From positions 211,594 to 275,593 of the forward strand of contig JAWAID010000002.1 in NCBI GenBank assembly GCA_038888615.1: 64,000 nt of DNA. The letters are read 5' to 3'. Numbering within the stretch: the stretch's first letter is position 1; each line of letters begins with the position of its first letter. The translations under genes and the position numbers were made by a program. Origin of the DNA: Candidatus Korarchaeum sp. (lineage in GTDB: Archaea > Korarchaeota > Korarchaeia > Korarchaeales > Korarchaeaceae). The notes below the pieces were generated by a model. The model did no database searches. It was not told the DNA's origin and worked only from the letters and a program-made list of their open reading frames with translations. Shown here one piece after another: positions 23,291-31,474 of the stretch.

Positions 23291-24967
23291 TCAGGCTGGA
23301 GCTCCTGTATGAGCTCCAGCTTTTATCCTCTTGTAGGCCCTGTATCCCTCGTTAACCATGAATAGAGCCAGTATTATCAGTACTATGTTTATCGAGGCAG
23401 CTATTCCAAGCCCTACCTTCGTCGGATCCCTCATATAGCCAATTACTCCGGAGTACGAGAGGTAGATGAGCGCAGCTAAGGTAGTGATTATCATGAAGGC
23501 CATTGGGATGCCCGTGAATATAGTTTTCTTCCTCTCCCTCAGAAGCCAGAGCGTTATTATCATGAGGGCTAAACCTGCCATCAGCTGGTTAGCACCACCG
23601 AAGGTTCCCCAGAGGTAAGCGAAAGCGGCTCCTGTCTTAGGGCTGGTAACTATGTAGACGATGAGCATTACGATAAAGGCGCTTAAGTACTTGTTCTTGA
23701 ACACCCCTCCTGCTCTAGGACCAGCTAGCTCGGAGAGAACGAGACGCGTTATCCTTAACCCTATGTGCATTATGGTAATGGCTAATATTATCAACATGAC
23801 GGTGGTGTATACCTTAGCGAAATCCATCGGTACACCTATCGTATTGAGTAGCATGGAACCTCCCGTAACGAAGTTCGTTGCAGTTTTACCCGCCTTTATG
23901 TTCCCTATAGCGACGTCGGGAGCGAGTATAGCAGCGGTAGTTAGGGAGACGAGGGCCATTATACCCTCGGCTATCATCGCGCCGCCACCGACGAAGTGCC
24001 CATCAACCTCATTATCCAACTGCTTCGATGTGATGGAGGATCCTATGAGACTGTGCCACCCTGATATAGCTCCACAAGCGATCGTGACGAATAGCATGGG
24101 CCAGAGGGGACCACTGAAAGTAACGTTTGGGTCGTAGAACGTAGTTACAGGAGGCGCTGAGTATTGGATGCCTGAAAACATTCCTATTATTATCCCTATT
24201 ATGCCGAAGTAAACTAGGTAGAACGATAGGTAGTTTATCGGTTGTATGAATACCCATATCGGCAGGACAGCTCCTAGGAAGCAGAACAGCAGGACCATCC
24301 ACATCCAGAAGTCTATCGTCCATATCCCGAGATCTACCTTCACAGGTATTAAGTTCCCTAAGTAAACCCCGATGTACATCAATACTATCGCGATGACCGT
24401 GGTGTAAACTATGTTCACCTTCAGCTTGTAGGTAGCGTAGCCAGCTAGGACCCCTACGATCGTTGTCACGATGATAGGTATCGGTGACTGCGGTATTGTG
24501 TTGAGCAATCCGCTCACTACGTTCGTGAACGAGGAGAGTATCAAAACTACGTACCAGAGGATGTACCATAACAGTATCGTCCTAGCTCTAGGTGATATGA
24601 GCTCGTACGTTATAGGTCCGAACGAGGATCCTTCGGACCTCACGGAGACCATCAGACTACCGTAATCGTGGATCCATCCGATGAATATTGTTCCTAAAAG
24701 TATCCAGAGGAACGCTGGAAGCCATCCCCACTGTATCGCTAAGATCGGACCGAGCACGGGACCTAATGCAGCTATACTCTTCCACTGGAAACCGAAGAGG
24801 ACGTACCTGTTGGAGGGGAAGAACTCTATCCCGTCCATGTACACATGAGCAGGGGTAGCTCTCTTCGGGTCACTCTCCATGACGTTCTTGTCAAACCACT
24901 TCACGTAATACCTGTACGCGAGCCCGTATAGGATAATACCCAGAAGGACGATGGCTACCGCGTACAT
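23291..24967 (-). CDS. cstA: Carbon starvation protein CstA (peptide/pyruvate transporter family)
   Basis: About 560 aa with more than 14 TM segments. CstA-like ...GPVLGPILAIQWGWLPAFLWILLGTIFIGWIHDY.... ATG 24967; the track start is TTG 24976. Confidence 0.88.
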   Translation of the reverse strand: MYAVAIVLLGIILYGLAYRYYVKWFDKNVMESDPKRATPAHVYMDGIEFFPSNRYVLFGFQWKSIAALGPVLGPILAIQWGWLPAFLWILLGTIFIGWIHDYGSLMVSVRSEGSSFGPITYELISPRARTILLWYILWYVVLILSSFTNVVSGLLNTIPQSPIPIIVTTIVGVLAGYATYKLKVNIVYTTVIAIVLMYIGVYLGNLIPVKVDLGIWTIDFWMWMVLLFCFLGAVLPIWVFIQPINYLSFYLVYFGIIGIIIGMFSGIQYSAPPVTTFYDPNVTFSGPLWPMLFVTIACGAISGWHSLIGSSITSKQLDNEVDGHFVGGGAMIAEGIMALVSLTTAAILAPDVAIGNIKAGKTATNFVTGGSMLLNTIGVPMDFAKVYTTVMLIILAITIMHIGLRITRLVLSELAGPRAGGVFKNKYLSAFIVMLIVYIVTSPKTGAAFAYLWGTFGGANQLMAGLALMIITLWLLRERKKTIFTGIPMAFMIITTLAALIYLSYSGVIGYMRDPTKVGLGIAASINIVLIILALFMVNEGYRAYKRIKAGAHTGAPA

Positions 24968-25338
24968 CGAGCGCAACAGGATGAGAAGCTTATAAACTTT
25001 GCTAGCCCCTCTACAATAATAATTTTAAACCTAGGTGAGTCCTACCATTATTTATTAATTTAAGTGACAAATTACGGAAAATTATATCGGGAATACACGC
25101 CTAAGTTCGTTTTAAGAACCCAGATCCCGGCACGGCGAATACTTTCGTTTCCATTAACACTTGTATATGTAAAATATCCTTTGAGAAGTTAAGTAAATTA
25201 AGTAAAGGTCGCATAAATTTATATAAATAATAGATACTAAAACCAATTATAGCTGATAAATATTAAATTTATTAGGCCTATTTATTCAAAAAATAAACAT
25301 CTACTCTTAATAATCGATCGTCCTCCGGCAGTGGGAGT

Positions 25339-25587
25339 ATGATCTCCAGGATCATCAACGTGGTTAAGGGTTTCATCTACGGTGCCACGACATACGATTA
25401 CGTTATTGAGCTAAGGAGTAAAGAATTTCAATACGAATGTCTACTGCAGGCCATTGTCCTTGGTGATAGGTACGGAATCCCATCATCTCACTATTACAGA
25501 CTAAAATTACTTCCATATTGGGTTACAAAATTAAAACATTTTGATAGAGAAATCTTAAGAGAGAAGGATATTCTCGAAAAAATATGA
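25339..25587 (+). CDS. Small hypothetical protein, paralogue A (82 aa)
   Basis: Aligns over its whole length, with one 1-aa gap, to the ORF at 25762..26055 (K..IYG...LGD..G.P..YY.L+LLPY.V..K....LRE+D). Confidence 0.6.
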   Translation: MISRIINVVKGFIYGATTYDYVIELRSKEFQYECLLQAIVLGDRYGIPSSHYYRLKLLPYWVTKLKHFDREILREKDILEKI

Positions 25588-25761: not shown

Positions 25762-26055
25762 ATGCGATTGAGGAGGAATAAAGATAAGGAAGAGAGAAAA
25801 GGAAGTGAGGTAGTTAAGGCTGCAAAAAGCTTGATATACGGTATGGCAGCGCATGGGATGGTATCCTACGCATTAAAAACGAAAATGCATTTGGAGAACC
25901 TATTCATGTTGATAACGCTAGGCGATATGCTGGGCCTACCTGTCCTCCCCCCATACTACACCTTAAGACTCCTCCCCTACGCTGTACCTCACGTGAAAAC
26001 TTGGAAGAGGACCTTACTCAGGGAGAGAGATGTTACGGACTTGATAGTAGGGTGA
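25762..26055 (+). CDS. Small hypothetical protein, paralogue B (97 aa)
   Basis: Paralogue of 25339..25587. Strong SD GGAGAGGTGAT before the ATG. Its stop lies 4 nt before the ArsA-like gene. Confidence 0.7.
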   Translation: MRLRRNKDKEERKGSEVVKAAKSLIYGMAAHGMVSYALKTKMHLENLFMLITLGDMLGLPVLPPYYTLRLLPYAVPHVKTWKRTLLRERDVTDLIVG

Positions 26056-26059
26056 TTTC

Positions 26060-27031
26060 ATGAAATTGAGAGAGTACTTTGAGGAGCACCCTAACCTAAA
26101 GTACATAATATTTGGGGGGAAAGGCGGGCTGGGGAAGACGACTCTATCCGCAACAACCTCTTACTGGTTGTCCAGGAGGGGTAAAAGGGTAGTGGTTTTC
26201 TCAACGGATCCGCAAGCGAGTCTTACAGACATCTTCGAGAGGGACATATTCGGGAAGGGGGAGGTAGAGATAGCCCCTAACCTCTACGCCCTCGAGATAG
26301 ATGCCGATAGACGTATAGCGGAATATCAAGAGGAGATTAGGAGGAAGATAATCGAGAGGTATGGAGAGGTACCTCCTGAGATAAATGATTACATCGAATC
26401 CGCTGCAGCTGAACCGGCGATGGCAGAATCAGCTACTTTCGATGCTATGGTTGAGCTCATGACGAGCGGAAGGTACGATATGTACATCTTCGATATGATG
26501 CCGCACGGTCACGCGATAAGGTTCTTGGGGATGGGTCAGCTCCTAGATGCTTGGATAGATAAGGTAGTGGAAACTAGGAAGAAAGCAGCCGAGTATGGTG
26601 ATGTAGCAGCTGTGATGAGTGGTAAGGGATCACTAGCCCAGGAGGATGAGATTCTGAATGAGTTAGAGTTCATAAGATCGAGATTAGATTTCGTAAGTAA
26701 TGTCATGAGGGATACGGAGCATACAGCCTTCTTCTACGTCTTAATACCTGAGGAAATGGCTATTCTAGACACTCAGAAAGCGATAAAAATGTTTGGAGAG
26801 TTCGGGATACCTATAAGTGGGGTTATAGTGAACCAAGTTTATCCCCCGGAGCTGCTCGTAGAGGAGTCAACTCCTGAGTTCCTAAAGAACAGGATAAGGA
26901 TGCAACAGGAGCACATGAAGAGGATAAAGGAGCTCTTCAGTGATAAGATATTAGCAGTAGTGCCTATGCTCGATAGAGAGCCGAAGGGGCTCGATATGCT
27001 GAAGAAATTAGCTGAGATGGTTTACGGGTGA
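26060..27031 (+). CDS. ArsA/Get3-family P-loop ATPase, copy 1
   Basis: Deviant Walker A GGKGGLGKTT, switch I STDPQASL, switch II DMMPHGHAIRFL. SD GGGTGAT before the ATG. Confidence 0.88.
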   Translation: MKLREYFEEHPNLKYIIFGGKGGLGKTTLSATTSYWLSRRGKRVVVFSTDPQASLTDIFERDIFGKGEVEIAPNLYALEIDADRRIAEYQEEIRRKIIERYGEVPPEINDYIESAAAEPAMAESATFDAMVELMTSGRYDMYIFDMMPHGHAIRFLGMGQLLDAWIDKVVETRKKAAEYGDVAAVMSGKGSLAQEDEILNELEFIRSRLDFVSNVMRDTEHTAFFYVLIPEEMAILDTQKAIKMFGEFGIPISGVIVNQVYPPELLVEESTPEFLKNRIRMQQEHMKRIKELFSDKILAVVPMLDREPKGLDMLKKLAEMVYG

Positions 27032-27035
27032 TATT

Positions 27036-28064
27036 ATGTCCTCCGGTGCGGTATCATTCAGTATTAGGTTCTCAGATTACGTCAGGTCGAGCCCCTCCCT
27101 GAGGTACCTGTTCTTCGGGGGAAAGGGTGGCGTCGGTAAGACTGTGATAGCAGCTGGTACTGCGTTATACTTCGCGAAGCAGGGGAGGAGAACGGTAATC
27201 TCCTCAACGAACCCTGTACATAGTCTATCGAGTGTATTCCAGAGGGATATTTGGGGAAAGGGCGTTCAGAAGATAAGTGAGAACCTCTACGCCGTGGAGT
27301 TCGATATAGAGAGGACTGTGGAGAGGTATAGAGCTGATATGAGGGAGAAGCTCATGGCATTCATAAAATCCGCTGATATACCTGTCGATCCGGAGCCCTT
27401 CTTAGATGCTGCTACTACGAACCCTGCTTTCGAAGAAGCAGCTATGTTCGATGAGATGGTCGAACTGATCCTGAAGGATGAGTTCGATGTCTACGTTTTC
27501 GATACAGCACCTGTAGCGCATACCTACAGGTTACTGGGTCTCTCAAAGGTCTACGACCTCTGGTTGAGGAGGTTGATAAAGAGCAGGGAGGAGGCTCTCT
27601 CAATGAAGGTGAAGCTCTCCTTTAGGAAGGAGAAGATAATAGAGGAAATAAAGAAGGATCCGATCTTACAGAGTGCTTTAGAGACTAGAAGGAAGACTGA
27701 GGAAGCTAAGAGAATACTAACTGACTCAGCGAAGACAGCTTTCTTCTTCGTAACCTTACCCCTAGCTCTTCCTATAGCTGTTATCGAGAGATTCATAACT
27801 TGGGTAAGGGCATTTGAGATACCGGTCGGTGGGGTTATAGTGAACGAGGTGATCCCGAGATCCCTGGGGAAGGTTCCGAATCCCTCACCTTACGTCGTCA
27901 ACAAACTCAAGGAACAAGATGGATACCTCGAGATGATCCACAGAAAGTTCCCTGACCTCGTGAGGGCCTACGTACCTCTCTACGAGAGAGAGGTCGTGGG
28001 ACTTGAGATGCTGAACAGGGTAGCAGAGGCCTTGGAGAGCGGAGGGATAGAGCTGATCCAGTGA
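27036..28064 (+). CDS. ArsA/Get3-family P-loop ATPase, copy 2 (switch I Asp replaced by Asn)
   Basis: GGKGGVGKT, switch I STNPVHSL (AAC codon at 27210-27212), switch II DTAPVAHTYRLL. SD GGGTGAT before the ATG. Confidence 0.88.
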   Translation: MSSGAVSFSIRFSDYVRSSPSLRYLFFGGKGGVGKTVIAAGTALYFAKQGRRTVISSTNPVHSLSSVFQRDIWGKGVQKISENLYAVEFDIERTVERYRADMREKLMAFIKSADIPVDPEPFLDAATTNPAFEEAAMFDEMVELILKDEFDVYVFDTAPVAHTYRLLGLSKVYDLWLRRLIKSREEALSMKVKLSFRKEKIIEEIKKDPILQSALETRRKTEEAKRILTDSAKTAFFFVTLPLALPIAVIERFITWVRAFEIPVGGVIVNEVIPRSLGKVPNPSPYVVNKLKEQDGYLEMIHRKFPDLVRAYVPLYEREVVGLEMLNRVAEALESGGIELIQ

Positions 28065-28065
28065 G

Positions 28066-28689
28066 TTAAAGGTTCGATAAACTCTCCCCTACTTTGAGTA
28101 GTAGATCAAACATGTTCCTTATTGAACCTTCGCTCTTTATGTTCCCCACTACCTTAACCCACTTGAAGTCCCTCCCTATCCTGAGGTACTCGAGACAATC
28201 CAATGATTCCTTTAGCTCGTGCCTTATGCTTTCTATAAACCTCCTAGCCTCGCTCACCTGATCTGTGAACACAGTCATCTTGAACTCATCCAAGTAGATA
28301 TCCTTGAGAGCTTCACAAGTGCCCTCCAGCTGTTTCCTGCTCCTCACTATTTGAACGTCGAGGTTGGGCATTCTAACGAGCTCCCCCCAGAGGGAGATTC
28401 GGTCCTTATCCCCGAACAATGGAGATATTAAATAGAACATTGGGTTCTCTCTCCACGTCAGAGAGACACTTACATCTATTCTAGTGAAAACATCGTGTCT
28501 TTTAGGTATGCAGAGGGCTTTAAACCCCCTCCCATATCTAATGAAACCTACGTATTCGGAGAAAGGGGAGGACTGCTCCCTAATTACCTCAGCATATCTC
28601 CTAAAAATCTTATTACTTCTCCAGAGGCCAATTGTAAATAATATTGCAAAAATCACTACGACTAATAGCAGAGCGAGAGTTTCGCTCAT
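28066..28689 (-). CDS. Hypothetical N-terminally anchored membrane protein
   Basis: TM LALLLVVVIFAILFTIGLW followed by a soluble domain of about 170 aa. Convergent with ArsA copy 2, with stops 1 nt apart. A/T box about 30 nt upstream. Confidence 0.55.
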   Translation of the reverse strand: MSETLALLLVVVIFAILFTIGLWRSNKIFRRYAEVIREQSSPFSEYVGFIRYGRGFKALCIPKRHDVFTRIDVSVSLTWRENPMFYLISPLFGDKDRISLWGELVRMPNLDVQIVRSRKQLEGTCEALKDIYLDEFKMTVFTDQVSEARRFIESIRHELKESLDCLEYLRIGRDFKWVKVVGNIKSEGSIRNMFDLLLKVGESLSNL

Positions 28690-30013: not shown

Positions 30014-31474
30014 CTACCCTCCCGACTGCCCCTTTACGAAGTGCTGAGTCGCATCGATATCGCAAGCGAAGCAACTACCGCAATGCGTGTTGCAGTAGTT
30101 ACGAGGTGGGGAACAGCAAGAGAGGACCCATCGGTAATTTGAGAACATGTAGTAACCTGCTGGTGGGTTCGTTGTCTTATACCTCACATAATACTTGCTC
30201 CACTCACGTGTCGCGTTCTTGTTCATCTCCCAGATCATATCATGAGACCAGCTGTAGCCCTCGATTGAGGCTCTATAGAAGAACTTCACCTGTATCGAGT
30301 TCACCTGAGAGCCCGGTACTCCGCACCCCCCTGACCTAGCTGAGTTCCAATAGTAGTTCAAGTTCGTGGTGTAAGTACTGGTGCAGAACTCACCCAGGAA
30401 GTGGTGCATATCGGGTTCGCCCGATGAGTAGCAACCTACCCATACCCTACCCGCTTGCTGCCAGTTGCTTATGTAGTACCATTTGTTGTCCTGCGGGGGA
30501 TCGAAGGGAGGGTTACATGATGTTATAACGTAAGTCTCGTTCTTGGAGAGAAGGTAGAGCATCTGGTAAGCTCCATAGTACTCCAAGTGAATGAAGGAAA
30601 GACGGCCTATGTCATCATCCATCCTATCCAAGACCCTCGATACCATCTCATCCGTGCTCATGTTCTTATCGAGCCAGGACACAAGCTCATCTAAGTAGCC
30701 CCCTCTCTCCCTCCTCGCCACCTCTATCTCCCACTTCACATCCTCACTGAAGTCCCCTCTTACCGCTCTCTCAACTAGAAGCTCGAGATAGTTCCTCATC
30801 TTATTGAGGTCCTCCAAGTAATATTCGGCCTCTAACCGAGCTGAGAGGAGATTCTCCTCGATATTGTGCTCCGAGTATTTTATGCGGAGGTTCCATGGGC
30901 TCTTACCTATGAGCTTATCGCGAAGCACTGTGAGCATACCGTATCTGTAGGCGCCAGTGAGTAGCCACTCTATCTCCTTATCGTATCTCTCCAGGGATAG
31001 CTTCAACATCTCATCCGTGCTCATGTTCTTATCGAGCCAGGACACGAGCTCATCTAAGTAGCCCCCTCTCTCCCTCCTCGCCACCTCTATCTCCCACTTC
31101 ATATCCTCACTGAAGTCCCCTCTTACCGCTCTCTCAACTAGAAACTCTATGTAGTACCTATGGGCGAAGTCCGCGGGTTCACTGTGCTCCACAACGGCAT
31201 AGGAATAAAAGGCCAAATCCGATATGTTCAGGGAGGTGTATACGGTCGTCTTTCCCACTCTATAGGTAATGTTGGTACTCAGCTTGAACCTACCGATCAT
31301 ATCCTCCTCAACCCTAGAGAAGGGGATGCAGATGAGCTCAGCATCGCTCTCAAGTCCCTTCCCCCTAGGCCCTTTACTGCTCTCCTCGGCAAGCCAGCTA
31401 TCTCTAGTGAGCAATAGGGGGGAGCTCAACAGTATAGCCAGGACGAGCAATAGCGGGAGGTAAACCTTCGGCAT
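30014..31474 (-). CDS. Secreted hypothetical protein with internal 121-aa period and Cys-rich C-terminal domain
   Basis: Signal peptide MPKVYLPLLLVLAILLSS. A 47-aa block (L/F)LVERAVRGDFSED(V/M)KWEIEVARRERGGYLDELVSWLDKNMSTDEM occurs twice. C-terminus ...SCCSPPRNYCNTHCGSCFACD.... Confidence 0.7.
   Translation of the reverse strand: MPKVYLPLLLVLAILLSSPLLLTRDSWLAEESSKGPRGKGLESDAELICIPFSRVEEDMIGRFKLSTNITYRVGKTTVYTSLNISDLAFYSYAVVEHSEPADFAHRYYIEFLVERAVRGDFSEDMKWEIEVARRERGGYLDELVSWLDKNMSTDEMLKLSLERYDKEIEWLLTGAYRYGMLTVLRDKLIGKSPWNLRIKYSEHNIEENLLSARLEAEYYLEDLNKMRNYLELLVERAVRGDFSEDVKWEIEVARRERGGYLDELVSWLDKNMSTDEMVSRVLDRMDDDIGRLSFIHLEYYGAYQMLYLLSKNETYVITSCNPPFDPPQDNKWYYISNWQQAGRVWVGCYSSGEPDMHHFLGEFCTSTYTTNLNYYWNSARSGGCGVPGSQVNSIQVKFFYRASIEGYSWSHDMIWEMNKNATREWSKYYVRYKTTNPPAGYYMFSNYRWVLSCCSPPRNYCNTHCGSCFACDIDATQHFVKGQSGG
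30644..30784. repeat. Direct repeat copy 1 (about 141 bp, intragenic)
   Basis: Identical to 31007-31147 except for 3 mismatches counted by eye. Offset 363 bp (121 codons). Confidence 0.9.
31007..31147. repeat. Direct repeat copy 2 (about 141 bp, intragenic)
   Basis: See copy 1. Confidence 0.9.

Follow-up and report, generated by a model that had tools for sequence, protein, structure and literature searches.

The ArsA-ArsB system of Escherichia coli, as outlined by Castillo & Saier 2010 (Int J Microbiol 2010:187373, PMC2963123), consists of an ArsA-class ATPase that attaches to a secondary carrier and turns it into an ATP-driven pump. The same paper described single-domain ArsA homologues of ~330 amino acids (aa) whose genes share operons with cstA and cstX (~90 aa), and in archaea only also with cstY (~210 aa, a single transmembrane segment). 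These CstA/ArsA-homologue operons contained neither ars genes nor an arsR-type regulator. Thermococcus kodakarensis was listed there among the carriers. Co-evolution trees were presented for CstA, CstX and the ArsA homologues, and the authors suggested an energizing role of the ATPase for CstA, in which CstX would serve as the linker. Adjacent pairs of ArsA homologues were noted in 2 organisms, two CstX paralogues in a few genomes, and an 'SXD' motif in which the D was replaceable by N only. Here we analysed two adjacent genes for ArsA/Get3-class ATPases, A1 (26060-27031, + strand) and A2 (27036-28064, + strand), in a stretch of 64,000 nucleotides (the window) from Candidatus Korarchaeum sp. 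(assembly GCA_038888615.1, contig JAWAID010000002.1, positions 211,594 to 275,593).

The window fits the 2010 description: besides a CstA, it encodes two small proteins (82 and 97 aa), two ATPases (323 and 342 aa) and an N-terminally anchored protein of 207 aa. Matched on size, order and description, and not on the sequences used in 2010, the locus is a further member of the bioinformatically defined CstA/CstX/CstY module. Among the ArsA clusters of that paper, clusters 14-18 and possibly 7 share its size class, operon make-up and absence of ars genes. A preliminary description, made from the letters of the window, had taken the genes for a chaperone or targeting module that had not been described. 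Such operons had in fact been reported in 2010, and a chaperone or targeting function is but one among several candidates, another being better supported. The genes are therefore better viewed as the ATPase core of a known, uncharacterized CstA/CstX/CstY module than as a chaperone pair without earlier description. In the literature searched, we found no experimental follow-up of this module, no work on DUF7990 or on Get3 together with carbon starvation and ArsA, and CstX in the relevant sense only in the 2010 paper. Universal pairing of A1 and A2 and a fixed dead site are not reported there; the fixed asymmetry with one presumably dead site and the CCDC47-like partner, both presented below, are so far unreported.

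Sequence asymmetry of the paired ATPases

Judged by their profile matches, A1 and A2 are unambiguously ATPases of the ArsA/Get3 class. Both matched PF02374 (ArsA_ATPase; A1, E 1.8e-73, 247.9 bits; A2, E 1.7e-64, 218.4 bits; cut-off 24.3) and TIGR00345 (A1, 244 bits; A2, 220 bits; cut-off 135). The closest solved structures for both are archaeal Get3 of M. thermautotrophicus (3zq6) and M. jannaschii (3ug6), with best matches at E 1e-70 for A1 and E 3e-57 for A2, and the alignment runs over the full length of the proteins, including the P-loop, switch I, switch II and the A-loop. The deviant type of Walker A motif is intact in both translations (GGKGGLGKT in A1, 26114-26140; GGKGGVGKT in A2, 27117-27143). 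Switch I reads FSTDPQASL in A1, where Asp50 is encoded by GAT (26207-26209), and SSTNPVHSL in A2, where Asn59 is encoded by AAC (27210-27212). Switch II is DMMPHGHAIRFL in A1 (26492-26527) and DTAPVAHTYRLL in A2 (27501-27536). Compared to the family pattern STDP / DTAPxGH, A1 has STDP but DMMPHGH, and A2 has DTAPVAH together with STNP, in which the Asp is lost. A gap of 4 nucleotides (nt) separates the stop codon of A1 from the start of A2, and the sequence GGGTGAT is found at 26050 and 27026, shortly 5' of the A1 and A2 ATG, respectively. Translation bore out the open reading frames (ORFs), the Walker A and both switch motifs and the Asn59 codon as given in the preliminary description, and the 4-nt gap and the two GGGTGAT sites were found as it had placed them.

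The preliminary description had further proposed that the catalytic motifs of the two copies are degenerate in a complementary, reciprocal manner. It was right about the position of Asn59: in the alignment to 3zq6, this residue falls on the Asp of ISTDPAHSL, the equivalent of the catalytic switch I Asp57 of yeast Get3. Yeast Get3 D57N binds ATP but does not hydrolyse it (PMC12506534). The motif STNPVHSL was present in 117 of 120 close A2 homologues and in 84 of 86 loci from archaea and bacteria, while the Asp was kept in all A1 sequences of both domains (FS[TV]DPQASL). Unlike in the 2010 account, the D-to-N change is thus fixed in one of the paralogues across both domains of life. The idea of reciprocity did not hold, because the A1 deviations (DPQAS and DMMP) spare the residues with established catalytic roles and leave the Asp of switch I and that of switch II, as well as the His of GH, untouched. 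In these alignments, A2 alone has lost a residue of established catalytic role, and the degeneration is to be read as one-sided. Since A2 retains the P-loop, the switch II Asp and the Asn of the A-loop, it would still be expected to bind ATP.

In the ArsA/Get3 class, the signature lysine of one subunit completes the site of its partner. This lysine was kept in 85 of 86 A2 sequences and was replaced in 5 of 71 A1 sequences (GGGGG or GGAGG), a pattern that fits, within a small sample, what would be expected if the lysine of A1 served the dead A2 site. The A1 Walker A motif GGGGGVGKT, which lacks the signature lysine, was seen in the surveyed loci L054, L063 (labelled Alphaproteobacteria) and L071 (labelled Usitatibacter).

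Both proteins of the window are free of cysteine, so that the CxxC zinc motif is absent, in agreement with the preliminary description. In all aligned A1 and A2 sequences, the CxxC position is occupied by a longer loop that contains Pro. The helical subdomain of A1 and A2 contains 4-6 % Met, compared to 11-12 % in the Get3 proteins of M. thermautotrophicus and M. jannaschii, at a similar mean hydropathy, and the lid region has a 4-residue deletion relative to archaeal Get3.

Database names such as 'arsenite-transporting ATPase', as well as the name of the Pfam family, would make A1 and A2 the ATPase of an arsenite or antimonite pump, a true ArsA. Against this, TIGR04291 gave only 114 bits for A1 and 104 bits for A2 at a cut-off of 650, and the lack of cysteine means that the metalloid-binding Cys triad (Cys113/172/422) is absent. 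Moreover, A1 and A2 are single-domain proteins, and no ars genes were present among the neighbours checked (~22.0-32.2 kb of the window), just as the preliminary description had stated. An arsenic pump is almost certainly not what these genes encode. No further ArsA-like ORF besides A1 and A2 was found in the 64-kb window.

Pairing of the ATPases and linkage to CstA

To the CstX/ATPase genes, the gene for a CstA-family multipass transporter of 561 aa (23291-24976, - strand) lies divergently, 1 kb upstream of the ATPases. It matched PF02554 (CstA) at E 2e-124 and has ~15 transmembrane (TM)-like segments. The preliminary description had missed this gene, which is the most informative neighbour of the pair. 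We surveyed the locus in one genome per species, which gave 80 loci, using our own ORF calling and a classification with phmmer; linkage was counted over those loci that had enough flanking sequence. A1 was located directly upstream of A2 in 63 of 64 loci, a CstA homologue was present in 43 of 44, and at least one small CstX protein was encoded in 62 of 63 (at least two in 50 of 63). The pair, which the 2010 paper treated as single homologues and which here is the rule, is therefore conserved with the small ORFs in other genomes. The loci of archaea belong to Bathyarchaeia, Nitrososphaeria, Methanoperedens and Heimdallarchaeota, and those of bacteria (~50 % identity) to Chloroflexota, Rokubacteria, Gemmatimonadota, Proteobacteria, Acidobacteria and others. 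Three distant archaeal A2-orthologue loci contained two PF25952/DUF7990 genes, A1, A2, CstA and a ~210-aa protein, and in bacteria the genes run colinearly as CstA>X>X>A1>A2. The called A1 and A2 ORFs of some other loci, L036 for instance, overlap by 4 nt.

In the phylogeny, the A1 clade and the A2 clade are each monophyletic across archaea and bacteria. A1 and A2 share ~35 % identity, and each of them is also ~35 % identical to archaeal Get3. From these comparisons, A1 and A2 are ancient paralogues that are almost always paired, a point that the preliminary description had put forward for checking. Because Asn59 is homologous to the catalytic Asp, the D-to-N change is fixed, the two ancient paralogues are nearly always adjacent, and the small ORFs and the N-anchored protein occur together with them, an asymmetric heterodimer would be the most economical reading. 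The prediction of an obligate A1:A2 heterodimer with one catalytic site is well supported by this comparison of sequences. A1 and A2 would then correspond to the pseudo-dimeric ArsA, split into two genes, and A1 would provide the only hydrolytic site. A2, with Asn in place of its switch I Asp, would bind ATP without hydrolysing it and might be a clamp controlled by nucleotide, closing the dimer and contributing its signature lysine to complete the site of A1.

Their membership in TIGR00345 and PF02374, and archaeal Get3 structures as best matches, could also suggest that A1 and A2 are the general Get3-type targeting factor of the organism for tail-anchored proteins. This is very improbable, as CxxC is missing and one subunit is predicted to be dead for hydrolysis. 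In addition, the near-obligatory linkage to one transporter and to CstX would not be expected of a housekeeping factor, and the same module is found in many bacteria, which are not known to have a GET pathway. We rejected both a true ArsA and a general Get3 role on the grounds of the missing CxxC and Cys triad, the low TIGR04291 scores, the lack of an ars context and the linkage to one transporter.

Some loci deviated from the common arrangement or contained additional genes. In only one locus whose upstream sequence is long enough, L046 (4674-5678; 4.6 kb upstream), does the A2 homologue have no adjoining A1, CstX or CstA. A thioredoxin-like protein of ~130 aa, which matches Thioredoxin_3 weakly and has hC.hC (CxxC) as a conserved motif, is encoded directly beside CstA in 24 loci, 20 bacterial and 4 archaeal (examples: L068, 2911-3324, +; L035, 4023-4409, +; L019, 11581-12009, -). 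A protein of ~210 aa that combines N-terminal TM segments with tetratricopeptide repeats (TPR) adjoins the module in 15 bacterial loci, directly after A2 in most cases and upstream of CstA in a few (examples: L048, 9040-9672, +; L033, 5034-5684, +). Homologues of these two accessory families were not found in the window. The identical or near-identical module proteins P0121, P0123, P0241 and P0002 have conflicting labels among metagenome-assembled genomes (Sulfolobales archaeon, Micrarchaeia, Korarchaeum sp. and Nezhaarchaeales), which suggests binning or label errors. Likewise, L023 is labelled Dormiibacterota, yet carries an archaeal-type module. The DNA of the window itself most likely belongs to an archaeon of the Thermoproteota (TACK).

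The small and the membrane-anchored partner proteins

Upstream of A1, the window contains CstX1 (25339-25587, + strand, 82 aa) and CstX2 (25762-26055, + strand, 97 aa). The preliminary description had called these small ORFs paralogues, and a comparison of the two at E 9e-13 agrees with this. They are two positional DUF7990 paralogues, of which CstX1 is the more divergent copy and CstX2, which adjoins A1, is very strongly conserved. We found 655 homologues of CstX2, all annotated as PF25952 and all unnamed. The highly conserved core of CstX2 reads GDxLGxPxLPPYYxLRLLPYxVPxIxTWKRxxLRExD. Identity of CstX2 is ~75 % within archaea and ~54 % between archaea and bacteria, and this conservation would fit a protein with several interfaces. 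The position-1 homologues, i.e. those of CstX1, have a precomputed PF25952 annotation, and CstX1 itself matches NF041419 (cory-CC-star) weakly. To the same family, 40 of 40 aligned CstX2 members gave matches, though far below the cut-off (33 bits vs 80), and neither of the CstX proteins of the window ends in Cys-Cys. On the basis of these scores, CstX is related to cory-CC-star but is not an equivalog. The hydropathy of the CstX proteins is borderline for a TM segment. With respect to YbdD/YjiX (DUF466), the partners of E. coli CstA, none of the 40 members gave a Pfam match, even at E 5. With one CstX for each ATPase subunit, the components might form a 1:1:1:1 assembly of A1, A2, CstX1 and CstX2 with one catalytic site. 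A third (or fourth) CstX paralogue was observed 3' of A2 in some Chloroflexota loci and in the Heimdallarchaeota locus (L039, 9036-9293; L055, 4859-5122; L028, 9037-9309 and 12637-12927).

Convergent with A2, the window encodes CstY (28066-28689, - strand, 207 aa). The preliminary description had predicted an N-terminal anchor for this ORF, and an N-terminal TM helix was indeed found; it begins at residue ~4, with no region N-terminal to the helix. The AlphaFold2 (AF2) model has a predicted local distance difference test score (pLDDT) of 86.9 and a predicted TM-score (pTM) of 0.81. When this model was searched with Foldseek, it matched CCDC47 chains of endoplasmic reticulum (ER) multipass and SND3 translocon structures (7tm3_4, E 4e-8, TMq 0.77; 9i78_4, E 8e-8, TMq 0.75; also 6w6l), and 9i78_4 was confirmed as CCDC47. 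The next match was mycobacterial TtfA (6t84) at E 7e-4. By sequence, 19 of 35 members of the CstY family matched the Pfam family CCDC47 (PF07946), with a best E-value of 3.3e-8. CstY of the window itself gave no Pfam match, and a CstY profile gave no significant match to PDB sequences, with 9i78_4 at only E 1.6. Among 1.8 billion representatives, the profile found 42 prokaryotic proteins of ~200 aa and none of the length of eukaryotic CCDC47. No papers on prokaryotic relatives of CCDC47 were found.

In 22 bacterial loci, N-anchored proteins of ~216 aa form a family whose homology to archaeal CstY was found with hhalign (98.8 %, E 1.3e-16). Its genes are often located on the opposite strand between cstA and cstX (examples: L040, 2873-3529, -; L050, 4647-5297, -). 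Whereas the 2010 paper described CstY as archaeal only, the profile comparison indicates that it is not restricted to archaea; the family has bacterial members and a CCDC47-like fold.

This resemblance raises a different reading of the module, in which the Get3-like heterodimer, the CCDC47-like CstY and CstX would form a dedicated biogenesis or maintenance machine that chaperones, inserts, assembles or controls the quality of CstA (or of CstX itself) and does not power transport. It draws on the full-length similarity of A1 and A2 to archaeal Get3, which includes the helical client-binding subdomain, and on the match of CstY to CCDC47 of the ER multipass translocon, by fold and, in the family members mentioned above, by sequence. 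The TM and TPR protein that accompanies the module in the 15 bacterial loci would fit as well. Furthermore, a D-to-N subunit would favour a long-lived closed state that holds the client, as in Get3 D57N. On the other hand, the CxxC zinc clasp is missing in all members, the helical subdomain has about half as much Met as in archaeal Get3, and other CstA proteins do without such machinery. We also know of no precedent for a private ATP-consuming insertion system that serves one transporter. TtfA, which follows the CCDC47 chains in the Foldseek search, is an accessory factor of a working transporter, MmpL3, and the CstY fold alone does therefore not imply biogenesis. Overall, we consider a biogenesis or maintenance role, the strongest competitor of energization, possible but rather unlikely. 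In its more specific form, a prokaryotic machine in which a Get3-like heterodimer with one live site acts on the multipass CstA together with the CstY anchor and the CstX helices, it appears more doubtful still. If it were true, relatives of two biogenesis factors of the eukaryotic ER, Get3/TRC40 and CCDC47 of the PAT complex, would already cooperate in archaea and bacteria, and the module would be a tractable model for part of the multipass-translocon and GET machinery as well as, possibly, its evolutionary root.

Other features of this part of the window were also noted. The divergent cstA and cstX1 genes are separated by an AT-rich stretch of ~360 bp (24977-25338), as seen from its sequence and G+C; it is included in the 24-26 kb bin, which has the lowest G+C of the 64-kb window (0.43). 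An Rfam scan of the whole window, including this stretch, gave no match. It presumably harbours divergent promoters for cstA and cstX1. Further downstream, a 486-aa ORF (30014-31474, - strand) encodes a protein that starts with a hydrophobic segment, is rich in Cys in its C-terminal region and matched no Pfam family. Within this protein, a direct repeat of ~45 aa, LVERAVRGDFSED.KWEIEVARRERGGYLDELVSWLDKNMSTDEM, occurs twice.

Proposed function of the module and comparison with known ATPase systems

Taken together, we propose that a widespread, conserved module of six genes is centred on the CstA-family transporter and has the A1/A2 heterodimer as its cytoplasmic ATPase. In this model, the two CstX proteins, one per ATPase subunit, would couple the ATP-driven opening and closing motion to CstA, and CstY would be a membrane-anchored accessory protein. 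By analogy with ArsA-ArsB, a proton-coupled scavenging carrier could in this way become ATP-driven or ATP-gated. Family membership, the homology of Asn59, the deep conservation of the asymmetry and the gene linkage are direct outcomes of the comparisons above. The heterodimer, its single active site, the coupling by CstX and the energization of CstA are inferred, and for the complete model, a heterodimer with CstX and CstY that drives or gates CstA in an ArsAB-like manner, we see about an even chance of being correct. That Castillo & Saier (PMC2963123) had independently found co-evolution of CstA, CstX and the ArsA homologues and proposed energization argues in its favour.

Several observations weigh against this model. 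As far as they are described in two reports (PMC7730263, PMC5847655), the CstA-family transporters of E. coli operate without any ATPase. The argument from the signature lysine comes from 5 sequences only, which belong to related lineages, and the AF2 model of CstX2, in which two helices are predicted, is of low confidence (pLDDT 60). Finally, a CCDC47-like CstY and ATPases that are nearest to archaeal Get3, and not to ArsA, point to biogenesis rather than transport.

The dead and live sites could also belong to a nucleotide-sensing regulator. Here, the heterodimer would gate or inhibit CstA by ATP/ADP, i.e. by energy or carbon status, with slow hydrolysis at the single site as a timer and not a motor. 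One dead and one live site are typical of switch-like SIMIBI NTPases, and the tight linkage to a carbon-starvation transporter would suit such a role, as would the operons without an arsR-type regulator in the 2010 survey (PMC2963123). However, two strongly conserved CstX adaptors and CstY seem more than a simple switch would need. Sequence alone cannot separate regulation from energization, and we regard a purely regulatory role as unlikely.

Should the proposed energization or gating of CstA be correct, the module would join ArsAB as the second system in which an ATPase of the ArsA/Get3 class is attached to a secondary carrier, and a very widespread one. Its nucleotide cycle would have a built-in asymmetry, as in heterodimeric ABC and ECF ATPases, with one site dead and the other live, and it would explain how many uncultured archaea and bacteria energize or gate their scavenging CstA transporters during starvation. 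The present assignment corrects thousands of annotations as 'arsenite-transporting ATPase'. The link between CstY and CCDC47/TtfA suggests that membrane-anchored accessory domains of multipass proteins make up a family of ancient origin, and its CCDC47 side bears on the origin of the eukaryotic multipass translocon.

Among paired Get3-like ATPases, the mycobacterial BagA/BagB proteins (Rv3679 and Rv3680), which are encoded by adjacent genes and are present in one crystal entry (PDB 6bs3), may serve as a structural precedent for heterodimers of this kind. Their genes have been implicated in stress protection (PMC10597346). BagA/BagB are very distant from A1 and A2 (PDB E-values ~1e-6), and membership in these families was rejected, as NF053622 and NF053621 gave scores of 34-52 bits at cut-offs of 400 and 521. 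We know of no linkage of BagA/BagB to CstA.

Compared to archaeal Get3, to which their sequences are nearer than to ArsA, A1 and A2 have a 5-residue-longer, Pro-containing loop in place of the CxxC zinc clasp and about half the Met, and they appear as a heteromeric pair with one D-to-N subunit. In the Get3 homodimer, both subunits have the catalytic Asp (D57 in yeast), whereas A2 has Asn59 at this position. CstY resembles CCDC47 and TtfA in that, according to its model, the membrane anchor precedes a cytosolic alpha/beta domain whose fold is the same, and like TtfA it accompanies a transporter. Unlike CCDC47, its ~207 aa leave no room for the C-terminal latch helices (PMC12572126). With ArsA, the pair would share two non-equivalent nucleotide sites at a (pseudo)dimer interface. 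In contrast to ArsA, these sites are encoded by two separate genes and not by one fused protein of ~580 aa, the Cys triad is missing and one site is, by prediction, genetically dead; the partner is not ArsB, but CstA together with small adaptors.

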